IMG/VR virus record: IMGVR_UViG_3300045974_000563
Direction: 5' to 3' (one strand)
Length of the DNA: 37,520 nucleotides
From: a virus
Position numbers and translations under genes: made by a program
Shown: positions 3,613-11,988 of the stretch, piece by piece
Layout of the letters: each line of letters begins with the position of its first letter
Numbering within the stretch: the first letter of the stretch is position 1
Notes under the pieces: generated by a model
Told to the model about the DNA's origin: nothing
The model's input: the letters and a program-made list of their open reading frames with translations, nothing else
Database searches by the model: none

Positions 3613-4329
3613 TCAAGGAAGCTGCCGAATCGCTTCAACTGCACTTTGCGCCATCATCGCCGCCATTTTAGGAATGACCTCCTGAATGGTCTTGTCGAGA
3701 TCTTCGACGCGAAGATAAACATCATCCGAATCTGCCCAGCGTTGGTCCGGCGTAGCAGCAATGGTCGTTTCCGAATCCTCATAATTGTCGCCAAAAACGA
3801 TGCGATCTGACGCGGTACAGTCGTTTTTCACGGCCGGCGTAACGATGCAATAAACAGCGTACACAGAAGGCTGGTAATACGATTTATTGTGATGCGAACG
3901 GACGCCAATACTCTCAAAATAGGTATAGATGACGGTCTTTCCATCCGGATTGATGGTCGACGATTGAATCGTTTCCGGTTTTGTCGGATCAACCCTGGCT
4001 CTCCGCTGATCGCCAAGCGCCACCCCAAGCGCTGATAATTCGGCGCGAAATTCAGCATGCAATTTTTGACTGTACTTTTGATCGCGCCGATACATCATCC
4101 CCGTCAGTCGGTCGCTCATTCCACTATTTCTAGACCTCGTGACGAATAGCGACAATGGCGCAGTCAGCACCGTGCCAATGACGTTGAAATCACTGCGCAT
4201 GGTGTAGGCAATTGGCTCAGGTCCATAGAGCGTATCGATCGGCGCATCGTTCTGCCTCTCTGCGAACGCCGCCGACGAGAGACATTCCGCAGCAATTAGT
4301 GCGAATGGCGCCGCAATCTTGAGTTTCAT
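3613..4329 (-). CDS. Secreted protein of unknown function (moron-like), with a signal peptide
   Basis: N-terminus MKLKIAAPFALIAAECLSSAAFA|ERQ has an AXA cleavage site. RBS aggggg precedes the ATG. The region is visibly more AT-rich than the rest and sits between the repressor gene and the rightward promoter. Confidence 0.6.
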   Translation of the reverse strand: MKLKIAAPFALIAAECLSSAAFAERQNDAPIDTLYGPEPIAYTMRSDFNVIGTVLTAPLSLFVTRSRNSGMSDRLTGMMYRRDQKYSQKLHAEFRAELSALGVALGDQRRARVDPTKPETIQSSTINPDGKTVIYTYFESIGVRSHHNKSYYQPSVYAVYCIVTPAVKNDCTASDRIVFGDNYEDSETTIAATPDQRWADSDDVYLRVEDLDKTIQEVIPKMAAMMAQSAVEAIRQLP

Positions 4330-4601: not shown

Positions 4602-4874
4602 ATGCCCATTCGCCACTACCTAAAACTCAACGAATTGCAGCAGGACGAACTTAAAGGCCTGTTCAACCGCCTGCGTAAAACGCCCGGCGGCGAGCTGATG
4701 GCCCAGGTCTGGAAAGACGGGGCGGTCGTCAGCCTGATCGACGCGCGAATGGTCGACGCCATTCAGGCGGTGACCGGCCAAACAGGGACCAGCCGATCTG
4801 CCCTGGAAAACTTTAACCATCCCGCCGCACCGAATATCGCCAAGGCCTTTGCCGAAGAGGATCACACCCAATGA
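4602..4874 (+). CDS. Hypothetical protein (90 aa), first gene of the rightward operon
   Basis: ORF track. Its stop overlaps the start of the next gene. Confidence 0.5.
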   Translation: MPIRHYLKLNELQQDELKGLFNRLRKTPGGELMAQVWKDGAVVSLIDARMVDAIQAVTGQTGTSRSALENFNHPAAPNIAKAFAEEDHTQ

Positions 4875-5503
4875 CCACCGACAACACCCTAGCCAGCCTC
4901 AAACGCCGTCTCGAAAAAGCCGAACTGGTGCATCTGCGCAACCATGCCGGAGAACTGGCATCTCGCCTGGAACGCGCCGAAGAAGAATCAACATCTGCCT
5001 GGGCCGCCGCCGAAATGTGGCGTGAAGATCACCTGCAGCTCATGCAGGAATTGGCTGCTGATGGCCACGCTATCGGCCTGACCAAGGAAGGTACCGTCGG
5101 CCTGATGGCCGAAATAAAATCATCCGCCTGCGCCATCGGCGAACAATGGCCAGGCACCGACGCCATCTATGCCGGAATCTCGCTGTCAAGCGACAACGCC
5201 CGTGCCGTGCATCTGATCCTGTGGCCGGAAACCAATACCAAGCAACTCGATCACGCCGCCGCCATCGCAGTAGCGGAAGCCGTCAATCCGGAGCACGGAA
5301 GCCATATTCCAACCCGGATTCAGTCCGTGACCCTGTACGGCAATTTGAAGGATTGCTTCGACAAGTCGCCCTGGTACTGGACATCCACAAAACACGAGAA
5401 CGGCGAGTGGGCGTTCATCCAGTTCTTCAACAACGGCTACCCGGACCTCCACGACCTCTCTGCCGAGTGTCGGGTCCGTGCCGTCAGCGAGATTCCACTT
5501 TAG
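4871..5503 (+). CDS. DGR target protein 1 (type A): N-terminal coiled coil plus DUF1566/C-type-lectin-like C-terminus carrying VR1
   Basis: C-terminus WYWTSTKHENGEWAFIQFFNNGYPDLHDLSAECRVRAVSEIPL. The last ~80 nt match the TR except at TR adenines. Confidence 0.85.
   Translation: MTTDNTLASLKRRLEKAELVHLRNHAGELASRLERAEEESTSAWAAAEMWREDHLQLMQELAADGHAIGLTKEGTVGLMAEIKSSACAIGEQWPGTDAIYAGISLSSDNARAVHLILWPETNTKQLDHAAAIAVAEAVNPEHGSHIPTRIQSVTLYGNLKDCFDKSPWYWTSTKHENGEWAFIQFFNNGYPDLHDLSAECRVRAVSEIPL
5410..5488 (+). repeat. DGR variable repeat VR1
   Basis: Aligns without gaps to TR 10808..10886. There are 8 differences, all at TR adenines (aac->ttc, tac, gac, ctc, cac; cag->ccg). Confidence 0.9.
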
Positions 5504-5537
5504 TCCTTCAACCCTTCAATACTTAAGCCCTTTCGCC

Positions 5538-5744
5538 ATGCTCAATCCTTCTGCAACGACGCGAGCTGTAGTGCACGATTTTGAAGTCACCATGCATCGT
5601 AAGGCCTGCCTGAATGCCAATGAAGCCGCCCGAAAATGCATCGTGTTCGTGCGCGCCACCGACGTCGGAGAAGCCAAGAAAGCTGCAGATCGTCTGCCTC
5701 ATAAACGCGCTTTCATGGCCATGTCGGCAAGGCAAGTCAAATGA
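5538..5744 (+). CDS. Hypothetical protein (68 aa from ATG 5538)
   Basis: ORF track frame. The track start at 5478 is a GTG inside VR1, so the ATG at 5538 is preferred. Confidence 0.4.
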   Translation: MLNPSATTRAVVHDFEVTMHRKACLNANEAARKCIVFVRATDVGEAKKAADRLPHKRAFMAMSARQVK

Positions 5745-5908
5745 TCGCCGCCATTTTCTTTCCAGCCGATCCGGAAGCCTGTGTTTTCGATCTGGTCGAG
5801 CAGGCGCACCAGGCGCAGCGCGCCGGCCTGCGCCTCTATACCAACGGCATCCGCTTCGCCCTGCTGCCGCACCCGATCGCTGGATGGGCACTGTGGGGAA
5901 CGCGCTGA
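5741..5908 (+). CDS. Hypothetical small protein (55 aa; below the track cutoff)
   Basis: The ATG at 5741 overlaps the upstream stop as ATGA. The stop at 5906..5908 lies 2 nt before the next ATG. Confidence 0.35.
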   Translation: MIAAIFFPADPEACVFDLVEQAHQAQRAGLRLYTNGIRFALLPHPIAGWALWGTR

Positions 5909-5910
5909 TC

Positions 5911-6243
5911 ATGGCCCGCCATAGCAACCCTTTCGGCGCATTTGAGATCGATTCATTGCCCGGCCAAAGCCAGGTCGCTGTCTGCCATGCCTTCTTTGTT
6001 CCCGAAGACCTGCGCGGCCGGGGCTATGGCCATTGCCTGAAAGAACTGCAAGAGATCGAGCTGGATATCCAGCATTACGACCTGGCTATTTGCACGGTGG
6101 CCGCCGGCAACAGGCGTCAAAAGCGCGTACTCAAGCAGGCCGGCTGGCGCTATCTGATCGGCTTTCGTAATCGCCGCTCAGCGGAGACCACCGAACTGTG
6201 GTGCCGAGGTGGGCAGGCCGCGGAATCCTCATGCGACGCCTGA
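5911..6243 (+). CDS. Small GNAT-like acetyltransferase (110 aa)
   Basis: The motif VPEDLRGRGYGHCLKEL fits the R/Q-x-x-G-x-G/A acetyl-CoA loop, and KRVLKQAGWRYL is GNAT-like. The start is taken at ATG 5911 inside track ORF 5614..6243. Confidence 0.5.
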   Translation: MARHSNPFGAFEIDSLPGQSQVAVCHAFFVPEDLRGRGYGHCLKELQEIELDIQHYDLAICTVAAGNRRQKRVLKQAGWRYLIGFRNRRSAETTELWCRGGQAAESSCDA

Positions 6244-6329
6244 TCGAAACCGTCCTCATCTCGATAGCCATCATCGTCTGCGGCGACGTGGCCAGCGGCG
6301 GAAACCAGATTGAGGGCTACGGCGAATGA
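6231..6329 (+). CDS. Possible 32-aa membrane peptide
   Basis: Translates as MRRLIETVLISIAIIVCGDVASGGNQIEGYGE, with ATGA overlap to the next ORF. Very short, so uncertain. Confidence 0.25.
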   Translation: MRRLIETVLISIAIIVCGDVASGGNQIEGYGE

Positions 6330-8470
6330 TTACCGGACCCACCGTCATTACCGGACCCACCGTCTTACTCGAAGGAACCATCTCAATGAATGACCTGACC
6401 GACCTCAAGCACATCGAAGCGACTCAGCTCTGCCACAGCCAGGCGCTGCTGATTGCCGAGATCCACCCCAGCCCAACCAACCCGCGCAAGACCTTCCCCG
6501 AAGCCGATATGGCGGAGATGGTCGACAGTGTCAAGCGCCACGGTGTCATGCAAGCCATCCTAGTCCGCCCGTGGCCAGAGGCCTATGCCTTCGAGGGCGA
6601 GCGCCCGAAGTATGAACTGATTGCCGGCGAGCGCCGCTATCGCGCTGCTAAAACCGCCGGCCTGACCTACATCAGCGCCACCGTTCGCGATCTGGATGAT
6701 CATGAAACCCTCGAGCTGCAGATCGTCGAGAACCTGCACCGCAAAGACCTTAACGAGCTCGAAGAAGCCGAAGGCTACGAGATGATGGTCAAGCGCTATG
6801 GCTACACCGCCGAGCAGCTGGCTGAGAAGATCGACAAGAGCAAGGCCTACATCTACGCGCGCCTCAAGCTGACCGCCGCCGGCGAAGCAGCCCGTACTGC
6901 ATTTCGCGAAGGCCACCTTGATGCTTCTCGCCTTCTGTTGATCGCCCGGATTCCGACTGAAAGGCTACAAGAAGAAGCGTTGGCAGAAATCAACGACGAA
7001 GGCTATCGCGGGCCCATGAATTACCGCCAGGCGGCGAAATACATCCAGGAAAACTATATGCTGGATCTGGCCAAGGCACCTTTCTTGTCGTCCGACCCCG
7101 AGCTTATTCCCATGGCCGGCCAATGCGGAACCTGCCCCAAGCGAACCGGCAACAATCCAGATCTTTACCCAGAGGTGAAAAGTGCAGACATCTGCACCGA
7201 CACAGCCTGTTTTGCGGCCAAGAAAACCGCCCACTTCGTCCGCATCAAGGATGCTGCCAAGACGCAAGGTAGAACCGTAGTTGATGGTGAAGCCGCCGTA
7301 AAACTGCTACGCAACGGCGATTGGGATATCAAGGGCTTCGTCAAACTTGACGATAAATGCTACCAGGCAGGTTTCCGATCAGAAGGTGGATATCCCACCT
7401 ATCGCGAATTATTGGCTGATAAAGGCGTACCGGTCACGCTGATCGAGAAGCTGGACGGCACGCTGATCGAGACGGTCGAGGAGAAAGCCTTCACCGCTAT
7501 CGCCGCCGAAGTCGGCGCCAAGCCCAAGACAACGAGCAACAGCGGCGATAAGGAGCGCACCGCTAAGGAAAAAGCCGAAAACGAATTCCGCCAGCGCCTG
7601 TTTGATCAGGTCAGCCGCGCCTATCAGGAATCATTTGACGGGCAAGACCACCTGGATATCTTCAGCCTGCGTTTGATCGCTCGCCAGTTCTTTTCCTGTA
7701 CCTGGAACGAATACCAGAAAAAGCTGGCCACCCGCTGGCTACCCAGCGAAGAGAAAATCGACTCGCACGAGCGCATCCAGCAACTCACTCGGCTGATCGA
7801 TACCATGCCGTTGGCGCAGCTTAATCTGTTCATGATCGAACTGGCCCTGATCGGCATGTCGCACGTCGGTAGCTATGGCGCTACGGAAACTCCAGCCCCC
7901 TTCCTCGCTGCCGCTCAGCATATGCTCATCTCGCCAGACACGATTCGGCGCGAGATCAAGGCCGAACAGGATGCCAAGGCGGCTGGCAAGGGCAAGAAGG
8001 CGGCGAAGACCGCAAGCCCGGAGTTTGCCGAAGGCAGCTATGTCGAGATCATCGCCTACGATACCCAGAAGGATCTGATTGGTTCCTTTGGCCAGGTCAA
8101 AGCCGTCGGCCGCGCCATCGCTTCCGGAAAACCGATCTACACGCTGCTGCTCGCCGATGGCCTTTCCCTAGTTGCCGATTCAACCGAGCTAGCCAGCGCC
8201 ACACAGGCCGCTTTCGAGACCCAACAGGACGAACGCAATCCGGCGAATGCCGCCGCACAGGCCGGCGACGAACCCGCCGTGGTCCACAGCAAACGTGTTG
8301 TCACCCCCATCGCTTATCGCCACCCCGACAACGTCGGTCTGGCATGGACAGGCCGCGGCCGTCAGCCCAAATGGGTTGAGCACTGGCTGGCGCAGGACGG
8401 TAACACCCTGGAACAGCTTGCTGTTGGCCAGCCGCGCTGTGACAAGACGATTGACATCCCCGGGCTGTAA
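6326..8470 (+). CDS. ParB/Srx N-terminal domain protein with a Cys-rich ribbon and an H-NS-like C-terminal DNA-binding domain
   Basis: YELIAGERRYRAAKTAGL...IVENLHRKDLNELEEAEGY is the ParB box. Cys cluster: CGTCPKRTG...ICTDTAC. C-terminus AYRHPDNVGLAWTGRGRQPKWVEHWLAQDGNTLEQL carries the H-NS TWTGRGRxPxW motif. An alternative start is ATG 6386. Confidence 0.7.
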   Translation: MITGPTVITGPTVLLEGTISMNDLTDLKHIEATQLCHSQALLIAEIHPSPTNPRKTFPEADMAEMVDSVKRHGVMQAILVRPWPEAYAFEGERPKYELIAGERRYRAAKTAGLTYISATVRDLDDHETLELQIVENLHRKDLNELEEAEGYEMMVKRYGYTAEQLAEKIDKSKAYIYARLKLTAAGEAARTAFREGHLDASRLLLIARIPTERLQEEALAEINDEGYRGPMNYRQAAKYIQENYMLDLAKAPFLSSDPELIPMAGQCGTCPKRTGNNPDLYPEVKSADICTDTACFAAKKTAHFVRIKDAAKTQGRTVVDGEAAVKLLRNGDWDIKGFVKLDDKCYQAGFRSEGGYPTYRELLADKGVPVTLIEKLDGTLIETVEEKAFTAIAAEVGAKPKTTSNSGDKERTAKEKAENEFRQRLFDQVSRAYQESFDGQDHLDIFSLRLIARQFFSCTWNEYQKKLATRWLPSEEKIDSHERIQQLTRLIDTMPLAQLNLFMIELALIGMSHVGSYGATETPAPFLAAAQHMLISPDTIRREIKAEQDAKAAGKGKKAAKTASPEFAEGSYVEIIAYDTQKDLIGSFGQVKAVGRAIASGKPIYTLLLADGLSLVADSTELASATQAAFETQQDERNPANAAAQAGDEPAVVHSKRVVTPIAYRHPDNVGLAWTGRGRQPKWVEHWLAQDGNTLEQLAVGQPRCDKTIDIPGL
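6329..6364 (+). repeat. Perfect 18-bp tandem duplication attaccggacccaccgtc x2
   Basis: Read directly. It encodes ITGPTV ITGPTV if the ParB-like ORF starts at 6326. Confidence 0.9.
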
Positions 8471-8495
8471 TTCATCCACAACGAAAGGAAGATTC

Positions 8496-9092
8496 ATGCA
8501 ACAAACGCAAACCCCGCAAATCGGCACTGCCTTCGAAGGCGGTTTCTTTGGCGGCGTCATCAACGTCAATGGCCATCACAAGGGCGTCATCTGGGCCCCG
8601 AAAAAACCCGGCAGCTTTCCTGCCGTTCTGTTGGATGAAGACAAAATCGTCACCGATGCCGGCAGCCCGTTCGACTGCCTTAACAATACTCTGGCGCTGC
8701 TCTCCGCCGGCAGCCATGCCGCCAAGTATGTAACGGGTCTGAAGATCAACGGCTTCCAGGACTGGCTGATTCCATCGCGCGACGTGCTCGAGCTCGGTTA
8801 TCGCCACTTCAAGCCGACCACGGACACGAACTGGTGTAGCTGGCGCGACGGCGAGAACCACAACAGCGTTCCACCAGGCTGGCTCTACACCCGTCAACTG
8901 CCTAGCCAGACATCACTCGAAGCCTTCAAGGCCGGCGGCGATGAGGCCTTCGATGTCGTCTGGCATTGGTCATCAACCGTACATCCCGATGGCGACTCGG
9001 CGTTCATCCAGCACTTCTTCCTCGGCAGCCAGTGCGACAGCGCCCTCTCTGCCGAGTGTCGGGTCCGTGCCGTCAGGCTGATTCAACTTTGA
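8496..9092 (+). CDS. DGR target protein 2 (type B): DUF1566/C-type-lectin-like, carrying VR2
   Basis: ATG 8496 follows RBS aaaggaag. Motifs GGFFGG...DWLIPSRDVLEL...WHWSST...AFIQHFFLGSQCDSALSAECRVRAVRLIQL. The 3' end matches the TR. Confidence 0.85.
   Translation: MQQTQTPQIGTAFEGGFFGGVINVNGHHKGVIWAPKKPGSFPAVLLDEDKIVTDAGSPFDCLNNTLALLSAGSHAAKYVTGLKINGFQDWLIPSRDVLELGYRHFKPTTDTNWCSWRDGENHNSVPPGWLYTRQLPSQTSLEAFKAGGDEAFDVVWHWSSTVHPDGDSAFIQHFFLGSQCDSALSAECRVRAVRLIQL
8996..9076 (+). repeat. DGR variable repeat VR2
   Basis: Ungapped alignment to TR 10805..10885. There are 11-13 differences, all at TR adenines. Confidence 0.9.
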
Positions 9093-9127
9093 TCCTTGAA
9101 TCCTTCAATACTTATCAGGAACTCATC

Positions 9128-9721
9128 ATGCAGCCCACCAATTTCACTATCGGCGCCGCCCTTGAGGGCGGATTTTTCGGCGGAATTATCAACGTCTCCG
9201 GTCAACAAAAAGGCGTCATCTGGGCGCCGAAGCAGGAAGGCCAGATCAAGGCTCGCCTGATGCCGCAAGGTCGCCGCATCCTGTCGGCCCATAGCCCGAA
9301 TGACTGCCTGACCAATACGCAGCAATTGCTTGGTGTCGGCAGCCCAGCCGCTCAGCGCATCGCCGAAATGAACATCAATGGCTTCGCCGACTGGCTCATT
9401 CCGTCCCGCGACGTGCTCGAACTCGGCTATCGCCATTTCAAGCCGACCACCTACAAAAACTATTGCAGCTGGCGCGATGGCGAGAACCTCAACAGCGTTC
9501 CACCAGGCTGGCTCTACACCCCGGAACATCCGGCGCAGACGGCACTGGTTGATTTCCAGATAGATGGCACCGAAGCCTTCGACGATTACTACTACTGGAC
9601 CTCGACCGTCCTGCCGACTGGCGAAACGGCGTTCTTCCAGACCTTCCTCAACGGCGTCCAGGGCGACAGCGTCCTCTCTGCCGAGTGTCGGGTCCGTGCC
9701 GTCAGGCTGATTCAACTTTAA
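9128..9721 (+). CDS. DGR target protein 3 (type B, tandem paralog of target 2), carrying VR3
   Basis: MQPTNFTIGAALEGGFFGGIINV...DWLIPSRDVLELGYRHFKPT...YYWTST...AFFQTFLNGVQGDSVLSAECRVRAVRLIQL. Confidence 0.85.
   Translation: MQPTNFTIGAALEGGFFGGIINVSGQQKGVIWAPKQEGQIKARLMPQGRRILSAHSPNDCLTNTQQLLGVGSPAAQRIAEMNINGFADWLIPSRDVLELGYRHFKPTTYKNYCSWRDGENLNSVPPGWLYTPEHPAQTALVDFQIDGTEAFDDYYYWTSTVLPTGETAFFQTFLNGVQGDSVLSAECRVRAVRLIQL
9625..9705 (+). repeat. DGR variable repeat VR3
   Basis: Ungapped alignment to TR 10805..10885. There are 11 differences, all at TR adenines, including atc->ttc. Confidence 0.9.
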
Positions 9722-9757
9722 CCCTTGAATCCTTCAATCCTTCATCGGAAAACCACC

Positions 9758-10240
9758 ATGAAACTGCATATCGAGAATCTCAATATCACCGTGTCTCACC
9801 CTCAGCAGCCTGCAGGGCTGCTCGCGACGCTGGCCTTTGCCAACGCCGTATCCAGCACGCCAGCACCAGCGATCGGCGAGAAATGGCCGGGCACCGAAGC
9901 CACCTATGCCGGCATCGCGCTTTCCAGCGCCGGCGACAGCCTCGTCCATCTGCTGCTCTGGGATGAGTCGAACGATATCGCCCTGCCCTACGCCAAAGCT
10001 GTTGCCTACGCCGAAACGGTAAATCGCGACATGAACAGCCACCTCCCGACGCGCCATCAAAGCATCACGCTCTTCGAGAACCTGCAGGCCAGCTTCAACC
10101 AGGACTACTACCACTGGACGCTGACCAAAACCAAGAGCGGTAAATCGGCGTTCATCCAGTTCTTCACCTACGGCTACCAGTACACCTGCGACCTCTCTGC
10201 CGAGTGTCGGGTCCGTGCCGTCAGCGAGATTCCACTTTAA
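9758..10240 (+). CDS. DGR target protein 4 (type A paralog of target 1), carrying VR4
   Basis: ATG at 9758 (the track start 9725 is a TTG). IGEKWPGTEATYAGIALSS... parallels target 1. C-terminus AFIQFFTYGYQYTCDLSAECRVRAVSEIPL. Confidence 0.85.
   Translation: MKLHIENLNITVSHPQQPAGLLATLAFANAVSSTPAPAIGEKWPGTEATYAGIALSSAGDSLVHLLLWDESNDIALPYAKAVAYAETVNRDMNSHLPTRHQSITLFENLQASFNQDYYHWTLTKTKSGKSAFIQFFTYGYQYTCDLSAECRVRAVSEIPL
10144..10225 (+). repeat. DGR variable repeat VR4
   Basis: Ungapped alignment to TR 10805..10886. There are 9-10 differences, all at TR adenines. Confidence 0.9.
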
Positions 10241-10280
10241 TCCTTTAACCCTTTAGTCCTTTAGTCCTTTAGTCCTTCAA
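10241..10280 (+). repeat. Five tandem octamers (tcctttaa ccctttag tcctttag tcctttag tccttcaa), starting at the first base after the target-4 stop
   Basis: Read directly. Shorter arrays of the same octamer follow the stops of targets 1-3 (5504..5519, 9093..9108, 9722..9745). Confidence 0.9.
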
Positions 10281-10282
10281 CC

Positions 10283-10660
10283 ATGCTTCATACCAACCTG
10301 CCGATTTACAAGAAGGGTTACGACTTGTTAACCCTTGCCGCCGATGTTCAGCTGAACATGCCCCGCACGTTCAAGCAAAGCCTCGGCAAGCGCGTTTCAG
10401 ACGAATGCGTCGATCTGCTCCTCGAAATCGGCTACGCCAATGCCAGCCGAGGCGAAGCACGCTGCGAGCACATCCGCAGCGTGCTTCGCGGGCTGGAAGT
10501 GGTCTCACTGATGATGCGAGTCAGTTTCGACAAGGGCTTTATCTCGCGAAAGATATGGGCCTGCAGCATCGAAATGACCAGCACCATTGGCGGCCAGGCA
10601 GGCGGATGGCTGAAGAAGTCAGCACCCGCGTCTGATTCACAGGGGTCAAGGCTCCTATGA
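10283..10660 (+). CDS. avd: DGR accessory variability determinant (Avd-like four-helix-bundle protein)
   Basis: 125-aa basic helical ORF directly upstream of the TR and RT. N-terminus LPIYKKGYDLLTLAADVQLNMPRTFKQSLGKRV is typical of Avd. Its stop overlaps the RT ORF ATG (ATGA). Confidence 0.8.
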   Translation: MLHTNLPIYKKGYDLLTLAADVQLNMPRTFKQSLGKRVSDECVDLLLEIGYANASRGEARCEHIRSVLRGLEVVSLMMRVSFDKGFISRKIWACSIEMTSTIGGQAGGWLKKSAPASDSQGSRLL

Positions 10661-11988
10661 CCGTGCGCTTTATGAATCTGGTCGCACCCCTGCCCCACAA
10701 GGGCACGGACATGCACACCACGGATACCGCAGATCTCTTCTCTGGCTGGTCCGGTGCAGTTTCCCCGCTGAACAGTCAGCAGGGCGACGTCGATAGTGCG
10801 AACGAACGGCGTTCATCCAGAACTTCAACAACGGCAACCAGAACAACAACGACCTCTCTGCCGAGTGTCGGGTCCGTGCCGTCAGCAGATTCATCCCACT
10901 ACACCTTCGAGTTGTTGCTGCGTGCGTATCTGGATTGTCGCAAGCACAAGCGCAACTCGAAGAGTGCCCTGGCCTTCGAGCAGGATCTCGAACGCAACCT
11001 GTGGCAGCTGCACCTGGAACTGAGCGACGGTTCCTACTCCCCCGGAAAATCGATCTGCTTCGTCATCACGCGCCCGAAACCGCGCGAAGTATGGGCTGCC
11101 GATTTCCGCGATCGCATCGTGCATCACCTGTTGCACAACCAGGTTGGCCCCCGCTTCTACGCCCGCTTCATTGCCGACTCCTGCGCTTGCATTGCCGGCC
11201 GTGGCACACTGTACGCAGCTGAACGACTCGAGGCCAAAGTCCGCAGCATTACGCAAAACTGGCGGCGCCCGGCCTACTACCTCAAGTGTGACCTGGCCAA
11301 TTTCTTTGTCGCGATCGACAAGCACATTGTGCAGGCACTGTTCGCCAAGCACATCAACGAACCATGGTGGCTGGCGCTGGCAGAAACCATCCTGTTTCAC
11401 GATCCGCGCCAGAACTTTGAATACCAGGGCAACCCGGCTTTACTGGAACGCGTTCCGCCGCATAAGCGCCTGAGCAGCCAACCGGCCCACCTTGGGCTGC
11501 CGATCGGCAATCTGTGGTCGCAGTTCTCCGCCAACGTTCTGCTCAATGTGCTTGACCAGTTCGTCAAGCACGAGCTGCATTGCCGGCACTACATCCGCTA
11601 CGTCGATGATTTCATCCTTCTACACGAGTCGGCACAGTGGCTCAATGCCGCCAAGGCCCGGATCGAGCAGCTGCTTGCCAAACAACTGGCAATGCATCTC
11701 AACCCCAGCAAAACCATCCTGCAGCCCATCAAGCGCGGCATTGATTTCGTCGGCCAGGTCACTAAGCCCCATCGCCGCACTCTGCGCCGCAAAACCTTCA
11801 AAGACGCCATCCGGCGACTCGAATCCATCGACGCCACCGATGTTTTTCAGACGGCCAACAGCTATTTTGGCCTTCTTCGTCAGACCACCCACAGCCATCA
11901 AGACCGGGCCATTCTCAGCAACACCCTTCGCCATCGCGGCCACAGCATCAAGGCCGATCTCACCAAGACCTATCGGAGAACCGCATGA
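10657..11988 (+). CDS. DGR reverse transcriptase (true start uncertain; the TR lies within the 5' part of the long ORF)
   Basis: RT motifs FRDRIVHHLL, GLPIGNLWSQFSANVLLNVLD (DGR-type IGNLTSQ-like) and YVDDFILL. Follows avd and the TR. Confidence 0.9.
   Translation: MTVRFMNLVAPLPHKGTDMHTTDTADLFSGWSGAVSPLNSQQGDVDSANERRSSRTSTTATRTTTTSLPSVGSVPSADSSHYTFELLLRAYLDCRKHKRNSKSALAFEQDLERNLWQLHLELSDGSYSPGKSICFVITRPKPREVWAADFRDRIVHHLLHNQVGPRFYARFIADSCACIAGRGTLYAAERLEAKVRSITQNWRRPAYYLKCDLANFFVAIDKHIVQALFAKHINEPWWLALAETILFHDPRQNFEYQGNPALLERVPPHKRLSSQPAHLGLPIGNLWSQFSANVLLNVLDQFVKHELHCRHYIRYVDDFILLHESAQWLNAAKARIEQLLAKQLAMHLNPSKTILQPIKRGIDFVGQVTKPHRRTLRRKTFKDAIRRLESIDATDVFQTANSYFGLLRQTTHSHQDRAILSNTLRHRGHSIKADLTKTYRRTA
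10805..10886 (+). repeat. DGR template repeat (TR), rich in AAC codons in the VR reading frame
   Basis: aacggcgttcatccag AAC ttc AAC AAC ggc AAC cag AAC AAC AAC gac ctctctgccgagtgtcgggtccgtgccgtcagc. It carries A wherever the four VRs differ. Confidence 0.9.

Follow-up and report, generated by a model that had tools for sequence, protein, structure and literature searches.

How does the cDNA of a diversity-generating retroelement (DGR) reach the variable region (VR) of a target gene while the template repeat (TR) is spared? This is the least understood step of mutagenic retrohoming (papers of 2017, 2018 and 2026), and it is the question raised by a stretch of viral DNA of 37,520 nucleotides (IMG/VR virus record IMGVR_UViG_3300045974_000563), which we call the window, meaning the whole stretch at its full length. 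The window contains a DGR with four VRs, the gene avd (accessory variability determinant), an RT-15 RNA, a TR and a reverse transcriptase (RT). Each of the four VRs is followed by 4–6 tandem octamers with the consensus YMCTTNAR, and none are found after the TR.

The known target determinants, the IMH sequence (for initiation of mutagenic homing) and a GC-rich hairpin, derive from one phage; homing takes its direction from the IMH, and how integration proceeds is unsolved. The hairpin was defined by Guo et al. (2011), who called its distance to the VR (4–34 bp) ‘quite flexible’, and the papers searched report no more of this spacer than its flexible length. Good-quality hairpins were found in only 34% of the DGRs surveyed by Wu et al. 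(2018), who also noted that recognition must extend downstream where the IMH equals IMH*. Two views of the integration itself have been put forward: Naorem et al. (2017) proposed that an RNA primer attached to the cDNA pairs with the IMH, and a 2026 study prefers a model in which the cDNA anneals to the lagging-strand template and the stem-loop makes the open state last longer. We found no description of direct repeat, octamer or heptamer arrays beside VRs in the open-access text of DGR papers, and the array flank is apparently undescribed.

Octamer arrays behind the four variable regions

Summed over the four VRs of the window, VR and TR differ at 41 positions that are adenines in the TR and at no other position. 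The TR and the four VRs have an identical GC-rich block of 33–35 nt (ending in CCTCTCTGCCGAGTGTCGGGTCCGTGCCGTCAG), so discrimination between them must come from the sequence downstream of this block. Every VR lies at the 3′ end of its own open reading frame (ORF); three of the four targets show weak matches to Lcl_C/DUF1566 (E = 1.7e-4 to 8.8e-3, under the Pfam gathering score), and the RT is 60–65% identical to the RTs of DGR-carrying phages (e.g. Magia and Haboob).

A preliminary description of this DNA, made from its letters and a list of ORFs, placed arrays of YCCTTNAR directly after the stop codons of the four target genes. The arrays are real and lie where they were placed: at 5504–5519 for target 1 (TCCTTCAA CCCTTCAA), 9093–9108 for target 2 (TCCTTGAA TCCTTCAA), 9722–9745 for target 3 (CCCTTGAA TCCTTCAA TCCTTCAT) and 10241–10280 for target 4 (five units). 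The register, however, starts 8 nt earlier than described, in the last codons of the four genes (CACTTTAG, AACTTTGA, AACTTTAA and CACTTTAA, respectively), and the array of target 1 goes on through two further, degenerate units (TACTTAAG CCCTTTCG) as far as a CC ATG. Counted by their [AC]TT core, arrays 1–4 have 5, 4, 4 and 6 units (Table 1). The stop codons of targets 1 and 2 are within unit 1 of their arrays (TAG at 5501–5503 and TGA at 9090–9092), and that of target 3 is TAA at 9719–9721. A short conserved stretch, gattcMacttt, had been assigned to the VR-specific flank as a whole; its gattc is still homologous to the TR (CAGC-AGATTCAT in the TR, CAGCGAGATTCC in the VR). That the sequence after the TR differs from the VR flank, and has no array, agrees with the earlier account.

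The octamer YCCTTNAR occurs 26 times in the window (12.5 expected), with 11 of the 26 occurrences inside the arrays. A tandem pair of such octamers (allowing at most two mismatches) occurs 14 times, compared with 1.4 expected, and 13 of these 14 pairs are at the four VR ends; chance is excluded as the source of the arrays. Tandem Repeats Finder reports a period of 8 at three of the four sites. The arrays occupy the spacers up to the next gene. Among the four targets, identity is 68–85% over the 40 nt past the GC-rich block and 47–67% over the 150 nt upstream of the VRs; the N-terminal parts of the target proteins share only 17–34% of their amino acids (61% for targets 2 and 3). A scan of metagenomes for microvariants of the window flank returned three contigs only.

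The array across the RT clade

We compared the sequence past every VR and TR (located by blastn in each contig) in relatives with RTs 61–77% identical to that of the window: 80 viral contigs (63–77%) and 80 loci from bacterial genomes. At least three [AC]TT cores at an exact spacing of 8 nt were counted as an array. The plus strand of the viral loci (1.04 Mb) has 166 chains of this spacing, and 155 of them are at VR ends (155 of 174 VRs), leaving 11 chains elsewhere in ~1 Mb, which is background level; 23 chains were found on the minus strand, and spacings of 5–7 and 9–12 nt hit 0–1 VRs. The bacterial-genome loci (Burkholderiales, Rhodocyclales, Gallionella, Pseudomonas and others) replicate this result, with arrays at 149 of 166 VRs and 149 of 173 plus-strand chains at VR ends. 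At the ends of TRs, 222 out of 228 have a chain of one unit or none. The period is also seen when no motif is assumed: the identity of a flank with itself at lag 8 is 0.49 for VR flanks, 0.21 for TR flanks and 0.25 for random 40-mers. The preliminary description had named frequent arrays behind unrelated genes of related genomes as evidence against its reading. The outcome speaks for the arrays: in the related loci (2.2 Mb in all) nearly every chain of period 8 is at a VR end, and TRs are not followed by chains.

Across the clade the unit has the consensus YMATTYAR, and 79% of units have A at position 3. T4 and T5 are set by our rule; A or C at position 3 is observed, Y1 is found in 93% and A7 in 75% of units, G is nearly absent at positions 1–5, and positions 2 and 8 are nearly free. 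The YCCTTNAR units of the window are shared with its closest relatives, and other members of the clade have different units (e.g. CCATTTAG TCATTCAG TAATTTAG). Judged by this comparison of units, the CCTT core, and with it the resemblance to the complement of a ribosome-binding site (RBS), is a subclade variant.

Three units per flank are the most frequent number (100 out of 156 distinct flanks), followed by four (40 out of 156). Array 4 of the window, with six units, is the longest among the 156 flanks; because its nearest relatives have three or four units there, its two extra TCCTTTAG units are a recent expansion. It could be argued from this that all arrays are a functionless by-product of replication slippage that travels, and is kept uniform, together with the VR cassette as target paralogs are duplicated and undergo gene conversion: array 4 holds three (nearly) identical TCCTTTAG units, as recent slippage would produce, and the four flanks of the window are evidently homologous. 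We consider this reading quite unlikely, as period, orientation and anchoring are kept over the entire range of RTs compared (61–77% identical) and over more than 300 VRs while positions 2 and 8 drift, and as unrelated units with a period of 7–8 are found at the same place in clades whose RTs are ~30% identical (see below). Homing by the DGR itself cannot homogenise the flank, because the TR lacks the array.

The array is anchored at the GC-rich block. Its first core is found exactly 7 nt past ..CCGCAG in 93 out of 135 arrays, which means that the array is phased on this block, and its orientation is always the same across the clade. The stop codon, in contrast, which the preliminary description had taken as the point from which the arrays are organised, may be anywhere in units 0–3 among the relatives; the array is uncoupled from coding. 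Stop codons within the units suggest another function, a trap in which TAA, TAG or TGA, recurring with a period not divisible by three, would stop VRs frameshifted by error-prone reverse transcription in all three frames. Many units do contain TAR (or TGA, in the clades with period 7), periods of 7 and 8 do rotate the frame, and stops in all three frames are enriched (30 out of 142 arrays, compared with 4.5% of shuffled sequences). But this enrichment concerns only 21% of the arrays, and we rejected three-frame stops as the main function: 79% of the arrays leave some frame uncovered, one third of the units have C at position 6 (TTCAR) and hence no stop there, and neither the conserved A3-T4-T5 nor the exact period is needed for stops. 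Selection on targets that are already frameshifted would moreover be weak, and we regard a stop-codon trap as highly improbable.

VR and TR differ across the clade at 4190 positions that are TR adenines versus 122 others, and by this adenine specificity the DGRs of the clade are active. VRs with at least five non-adenine mismatches (2 out of 340) are too few to show loss of the array in decayed VRs. Among sequenced phages the clade is sharply bounded (its members have RTs 60–65% identical, and all others at most 36%), and cultured phages with arrays include Magia (Burkholderia), Haboob (Pseudomonas) and the Shewanella phage vB_Sb_QDWS. The genome relatives are nearly all from Betaproteobacteria (Paraburkholderia, Cupriavidus, Janthinobacterium, Rhodocyclaceae and Gallionella), plus Pseudomonas; most of their loci have 2–3 VRs, and two have four, like the window. 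A betaproteobacterial or Pseudomonas phage or prophage is the probable source of the window. Taken at the level of sequence, these comparisons show the array to be a directional, VR-specific and phase-locked cis element that is constrained unit by unit.

Structure, pairing and neighboring genes

None of the four VRs of the window is followed by a hairpin of the type defined by Guo et al. (2011) (a GC-rich stem of 7–10 bp with a 4-nt GRNA loop, 4–34 bp downstream). The earlier view that there is an array rather than a hairpin therefore holds for the window, but not for the clade: a GC-rich hairpin, commonly with a GCA loop, is found within a few nucleotides of the array end in ~22 out of 156 related flanks (∼15%). 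Because the array directly abuts the hairpin in these flanks, the two are adjacent modules and not alternatives. Arrays are not seen to be longer where the hairpin is missing, the distributions of unit numbers being alike with and without it. Folding of RNA and DNA around the VR 3′ ends, as had been advised, gave no structure above that of shuffled sequence: for the four window flanks z ranges from −0.8 to +2.0 (−0.8 to +1.6 for DNA, both strands, and +0.7 to +2.0 for RNA, which folds less well than shuffled sequence), and a hidden hairpin or cruciform was rejected. There is an AT-rich stem of 7 bp (GATTCAA/TTGAATC) at targets 2 and 3; the relatives have not kept it, and it was rejected as well.

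RNA that folds worse than shuffled sequence is in line with a role at the RNA level, in which the array would be an unstructured, G-poor and A/U- or C/U-rich intercistronic spacer of a polycistronic mRNA that promotes termination–reinitiation or S1-dependent, Shine–Dalgarno-independent translation of the gene behind it. Other observations fit such a role: the arrays take up the whole spacer and, in hairpin-free flanks, leave a median of 11 nt between their end and the next start codon, and the two genes next to arrays of the ‘CACTTT..’ type, a 68-aa ORF (5538–5744) and avd (10283), begin with CC ATG CT and have no Shine–Dalgarno sequence. (The genes past arrays 2 and 3 have AGGAA and GGAAAA, respectively, ahead of their start codons.) The preliminary description had a version of its own, sequestration of the RBS, as the units of the window are complementary to AAGGA. 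This version is not sustained by the clade, since it rests on the CCTT core, which is limited to a small subclade; the common core is ATT, and the clade-wide YMATTYAR is not complementary to AAGGA. The more general version is also unlikely in our judgment. The array tracks VRs and not one class of downstream gene (the downstream genes are diverse), and it is retained where a GC-rich hairpin and a further spacer of ~38 nt with an RBS of its own (GGAG) precede the next gene. Its position is set by the GC-rich block, 7 nt away, and its distance to the start codon is not constant; the other short intergenic spacers of the same phages have no array (the 11 non-VR chains per 1 Mb being background), and an unstructured spacer needs no exact periodicity.

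The array could alternatively be read as double-stranded DNA. Operators of ribbon-helix-helix (RHH) proteins, such as the 8-bp metboxes of MetJ (2–5 copies) and the 7-bp heptads of the omega protein, are promoter operators on double-stranded DNA. The array might be an operator-like site of this style, with one 7–8-bp unit per dimer, or an H-NS-type nucleation site, and regulate transcription of the target instead of homing. Its architecture of 2–6 contiguous tandem units of 7–8 bp matches that of RHH operators, and variable copy number together with conservation per unit is the signature of cooperative binding of one protein subunit or dimer per unit. In most relatives the arrays are AT-rich islands within GC-rich genomes, and the window encodes a fusion of ParB to the C-terminal part of H-NS between targets 1 and 2. 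However, the arrays of the window are not AT-rich. Unlike RHH operators, the arrays are found at the 3′ ends of genes and only at VRs, are linked to a retroelement, and have one direction and a G-poor sense strand; no promoter-like or terminator-like site (including a GC stem-loop with a T run) was found at or near the arrays. The phage backbones differ: in Magia, for example, the genes between the VRs are those of RecT, an ATPase and a regulator, with no ParB annotated in the region examined, and yet this phage has arrays. We found no cognate RHH gene, and no conserved small DNA-binding gene is linked to the DGR across backbones. A regulatory site of this kind therefore has, in our view, little probability.

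Base-pairing of the array with the RNA of the DGR was rejected: RNAduplex energies are −10.6 kcal/mol for cognate pairs, −10.4 for non-cognate pairs and −10.6 for shuffled sequences, and they are likewise equal in the VHML/ACA1-like clade described below. An exact-match search of the 260 nt before and the 150 nt after the TR gave scattered matches only (e.g. ATGACTGA at the avd stop codon, in few loci). Within RT-15, ATGAATCTG (10672–10680) is fully complementary, over 9 bp, to CAGATTCAT at the 3′ end of the TR (10886–10894), and the two make a candidate primer–template duplex. Pairing of AAUCUG in RT-15 with CAGAUU at TR and VR ends is conserved across the clade and ends where the array begins; in most other loci it reaches farther on the VR side (6–8 bp) than on the TR side (5 bp). 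In many relatives (e.g. at ∼7340 and ∼7995 of the locus L010) the start region of avd contains TCAGCATGG, the reverse complement of CCATGCTGA, which lies 15–25 nt past the TR. This complementarity, absent from the subclade of the window, may form a long-range stem in the transcript that encloses avd, RT-15 and the TR.

The features of the locus are listed in Table 1. A scan for known RNA families gave RT-15 only, away from the arrays; this motif overlaps the stop codon of avd and the start codon of the RT ORF. The match of avd to bAvd has 34.3 bits, below the curated cut-off of 40. In this clade the conserved structured RNA lies upstream of the TR, and RT similarity begins 7–25 nt past the TR; there is no room downstream of the TR for a spacer like Sp of BPP-1. 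In the window the likeness to other RTs starts at ∼10900, with the TR inside the 5′ part of the ORF, which reads through RT-15 and the TR from its ATG at the avd stop codon. Because the ORF encloses the TR, the protein would carry the translated TR as a low-complexity extension at its N-terminus, unless translation begins at an internal start codon. In ACA1 and VP58.5 the RT gene as annotated (from about the avd stop codon) encloses the TR in the same way, and so does that of phiARM81mr (from just after it). The gene between target 1 and targets 2–4 (6326–8470, plus strand) encodes a protein of 714 aa in which ParB N-terminal and helix-turn-helix domains are fused to the C-terminal DNA-binding domain of H-NS; an 18-nt tandem repeat (ATTACCGGACCCACCGTC, 2.3 copies) is found at its 5′ end (6329–6368).

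Table 1. Target genes, repeats, octamer arrays and core DGR components in the window
Feature	Coordinates	Strand	Details
Target gene 1	4871..5503	+	210 aa; from ORF list; weak C-terminal Lcl_C/DUF1566 match (PF07603, E = 0.0088, below gathering cut-off)
VR1	5410..5495	+	blastn against TR; shared GC-rich block 5453–5487; 8 adenine mismatches, 0 non-adenine
Array 1	5496..5535	+	5 units: CACTTTAG TCCTTCAA CCCTTCAA TACTTAAG CCCTTTCG; then CC ATG of 68-aa ORF
Target gene 2	8496..9092	+	198 aa; weak Lcl_C match (E = 7e-4)
VR2	8998..9085	+	blastn against TR; shared GC-rich block 9042–9076; 12 adenine mismatches, 0 non-adenine
Array 2	9085..9116	+	4 units: AACTTTGA TCCTTGAA TCCTTCAA TACTTATC; next gene from 9128
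Target gene 3	9128..9721	+	197 aa; weak Lcl_C match (E = 1.7e-4)
VR3	9625..9714	+	blastn against TR; shared GC-rich block 9671–9705; 12 adenine mismatches, 0 non-adenine
Array 3	9714..9745	+	4 units: AACTTTAA CCCTTGAA TCCTTCAA TCCTTCAT; next gene from 9758
Target gene 4	9758..10240	+	160 aa; C-terminal VR resembles that of target 1
VR4	10146..10232	+	blastn against TR; shared GC-rich block 10190–10224; 9 adenine mismatches, 0 non-adenine
Array 4	10233..10280	+	6 units: CACTTTAA TCCTTTAA CCCTTTAG TCCTTTAG TCCTTTAG TCCTTCAA; then CC ATG of avd
avd	10283..10660	+	125 aa; Pfam bAvd (PF22296), E = 3.5e-8
RT-15 RNA motif	10626..10808	+	Rfam RF03018; cmscan 160.4 bits (gathering score 82); between avd and TR
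RT ORF	10657..11988	+	Pfam RVT_1, E = 2.4e-10; ATG overlaps avd stop codon (ATGA)
TR	10805..10893	+	blastn; shared GC-rich block 10851–10885; then CAGATTCATCCCACTACACC; no array

Distant clades and a proposed target-site element

Arrays analogous to those of the window are also found in distant DGR clades. Their RTs are about 30% identical and their units unrelated, yet the period is 7–8 and the place is the same; the phages that carry them infect Vibrio, Aeromonas, Bacillus, Faecalibacterium and Bacteroides. For example, P2-type phages similar to VHML, VP58.5, ACA1 and phiARM81mr have repeats of period 7 with a YTG core (e.g. CTCTGAA ATCTGAC ACCTGAA ATCTGAT), followed by a hairpin with a GRNA loop. 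Out of 16 strict four-unit chains in 744 kb of VHML/ACA1-like sequence, 15 are at VR ends, and self-identity at lag 7 is 0.43 (versus 0.26). Faecalibacterium phage Lagaffe and its relatives have four copies of (N)NAATCTG with a period of 8, again followed by a hairpin (self-identity at lag 8 of 0.48, compared with 0.37 in TR flanks; eight distinct flanks), and AATCTG recurs at spacings of 7 and 8 in Bacillus phage BalMu-1. In Bacteroides phage Bacuni_F1 and its relatives, TTAR is found every 7 nt, five to six times, ahead of a GAAA hairpin (0.57 at lag 7; four distinct flanks). Since the sequence of the unit differs from clade to clade, whatever reads it is probably encoded by the element rather than being a universal host factor.

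The clade of BPP-1 (65 distinct flanks) has the classical GGGCGC-GAAA-GCGCCC hairpin right past the stop codon. Its VR-specific segment, CTGTGAC CAC CTG NNN CTTGA YTRAG, is nearly invariant even at synonymous sites (Leu is always CTT and His always CAC) with the middle codon free, and the TR diverges right past CTGTG; comparison of these flanks indicates that constraint acts on the Bordetella-type IMH at the nucleotide level. The segment can be read as three degenerate TG-containing units (CTGTGAC CACCTGM NNCTTGA), which we take as a hint only, since the segment is coding; the pattern of TGA at spacings of 8 and 7 in the BPP-1 IMH is likewise suggestive but weak, being in coding sequence.

We propose, with moderate confidence and on comparative grounds, that the arrays are a VR-specific target-site element in cis that would mark the recipient (VR) as opposed to the donor (TR) for mutagenic retrohoming, with units that are read by a multimeric protein. 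By analogy, we infer that they would be functionally equivalent to the VR-specific half of the Bordetella IMH; their place is that of the spacer between IMH and hairpin in other DGRs. Four points suggest a licensing role in homing: the array adjoins the site at which the cDNA has to pair by its 5′ end, there is none at the TR, the shared block cannot discriminate, and the IMH offers an analogy. The repetitive architecture, the clade-specific unit and the lack of structure of its own point to a protein reader with repeated equivalent sites, encoded by the element or co-evolving with it. One unit per subunit would be read on the sense strand by a multimeric protein of the element, when this strand is exposed as single-stranded DNA (on the lagging-strand template, or as the non-template strand of a transcription bubble) or in the nascent target RNA. 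Reading would then dock the complex of cDNA, RNA and protein beside the GC-rich block, at which the cDNA has to anneal by its 5′ end; copy numbers of 3–6 would be tolerated and would drift by slippage. The most obvious candidate for the reader, though a speculative one, is the pentameric Avd: in the Bordetella ribonucleoprotein all five Avd protomers contact an RNA stem-loop, with flipped-out bases in equivalent crevices (cryo-EM preprint).

The preliminary description had placed the VR-specific flank at the position of the Bordetella recognition determinant, and the comparative evidence supports this reading. Like the IMH and hairpin of BPP-1 (Doulatov 2004; Guo 2011; Naorem 2017), the arrays lie 3′ of the VR, directly after the shared GC-rich block, are found only at VRs, differ from the sequence after the TR and have a fixed orientation; in the ∼15% of relatives where the array is followed by a GC hairpin, it lies within the 4–34-bp gap of the published architecture. 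The differences are as clear: the IMH of BPP-1 is a unique sequence of 21 bp whereas the array is a tandem repeat of exact period with 3–6 units, the hairpin is missing in the window and in 85% of related flanks, and the RNA-primer pairing of the 2017 model was not found for the array. Two other comparisons place the array less well. As in simple-sequence contingency loci, its units are short and in tandem and their number differs among close relatives (three or four versus six); unlike in such loci, the units are degenerate outside the core, they are not located in an ORF or a promoter spacer, and their number is 3–4 in 140 out of 156 flanks. Mobile group II introns are retroelements with a related RT whose DNA target is recognised by determinants beside the integration point, through RNA–DNA pairing together with protein contacts to the DNA on its flanks, but we detected no base-pairing of the array with the RNA of the element. 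The targets of group II introns are not known to have a repeat architecture.

Several points weigh against a target-site element. The clade of BPP-1, the sole one tested experimentally, has no array by the chain or the autocorrelation criterion, and the only published mechanism for the IMH (RNA-primer pairing; Naorem 2017) does not extend to arrays. Some of the samples from other clades are small (four and eight distinct flanks), and gene conversion among VR paralogs could add to the similarity of flanks within a genome. In the subclade of the window the TR (9 bp) is a better pairing partner of the RT-15 segment than the VRs are. The arrays fill the spacers and end ∼11 nt before the start codon, which leaves room for a role at the RNA level. 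As for Avd, the Sp stem-loop already takes up the surface with which it binds RNA in the Bordetella ribonucleoprotein (cryo-EM preprint).

The DGR locus of the window is in itself ordinary, and there is a reasonable chance that its array flank is general. A broader and more doubtful proposal, which we put forward tentatively, is that short arrays (3–6 units with a period of 7 or 8 and a clade-specific unit) may be a general and overlooked licensing code of DGR target sites that is read by a multimer, most plausibly the Avd pentamer, with the AT-richer half of the Bordetella IMH (CTGTGAC CACCTGA TTCTTGA) as a degenerate version under coding constraint. If true, such a code would explain how the roughly two thirds of DGRs that have no hairpin find their targets. 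For the large clade studied here, with ∼300 VRs, the array is a VR-specific, easily recognised and position-anchored handle on the homing problem: it predicts a multimeric reader, and standard homing assays allow it to be deleted, counted, shifted in phase and moved to other sites. Arrays could also help in annotating where VRs end and in annotating orphan or remote targets, and could serve as a portable ‘target tag’ in engineered DGR mutagenesis.

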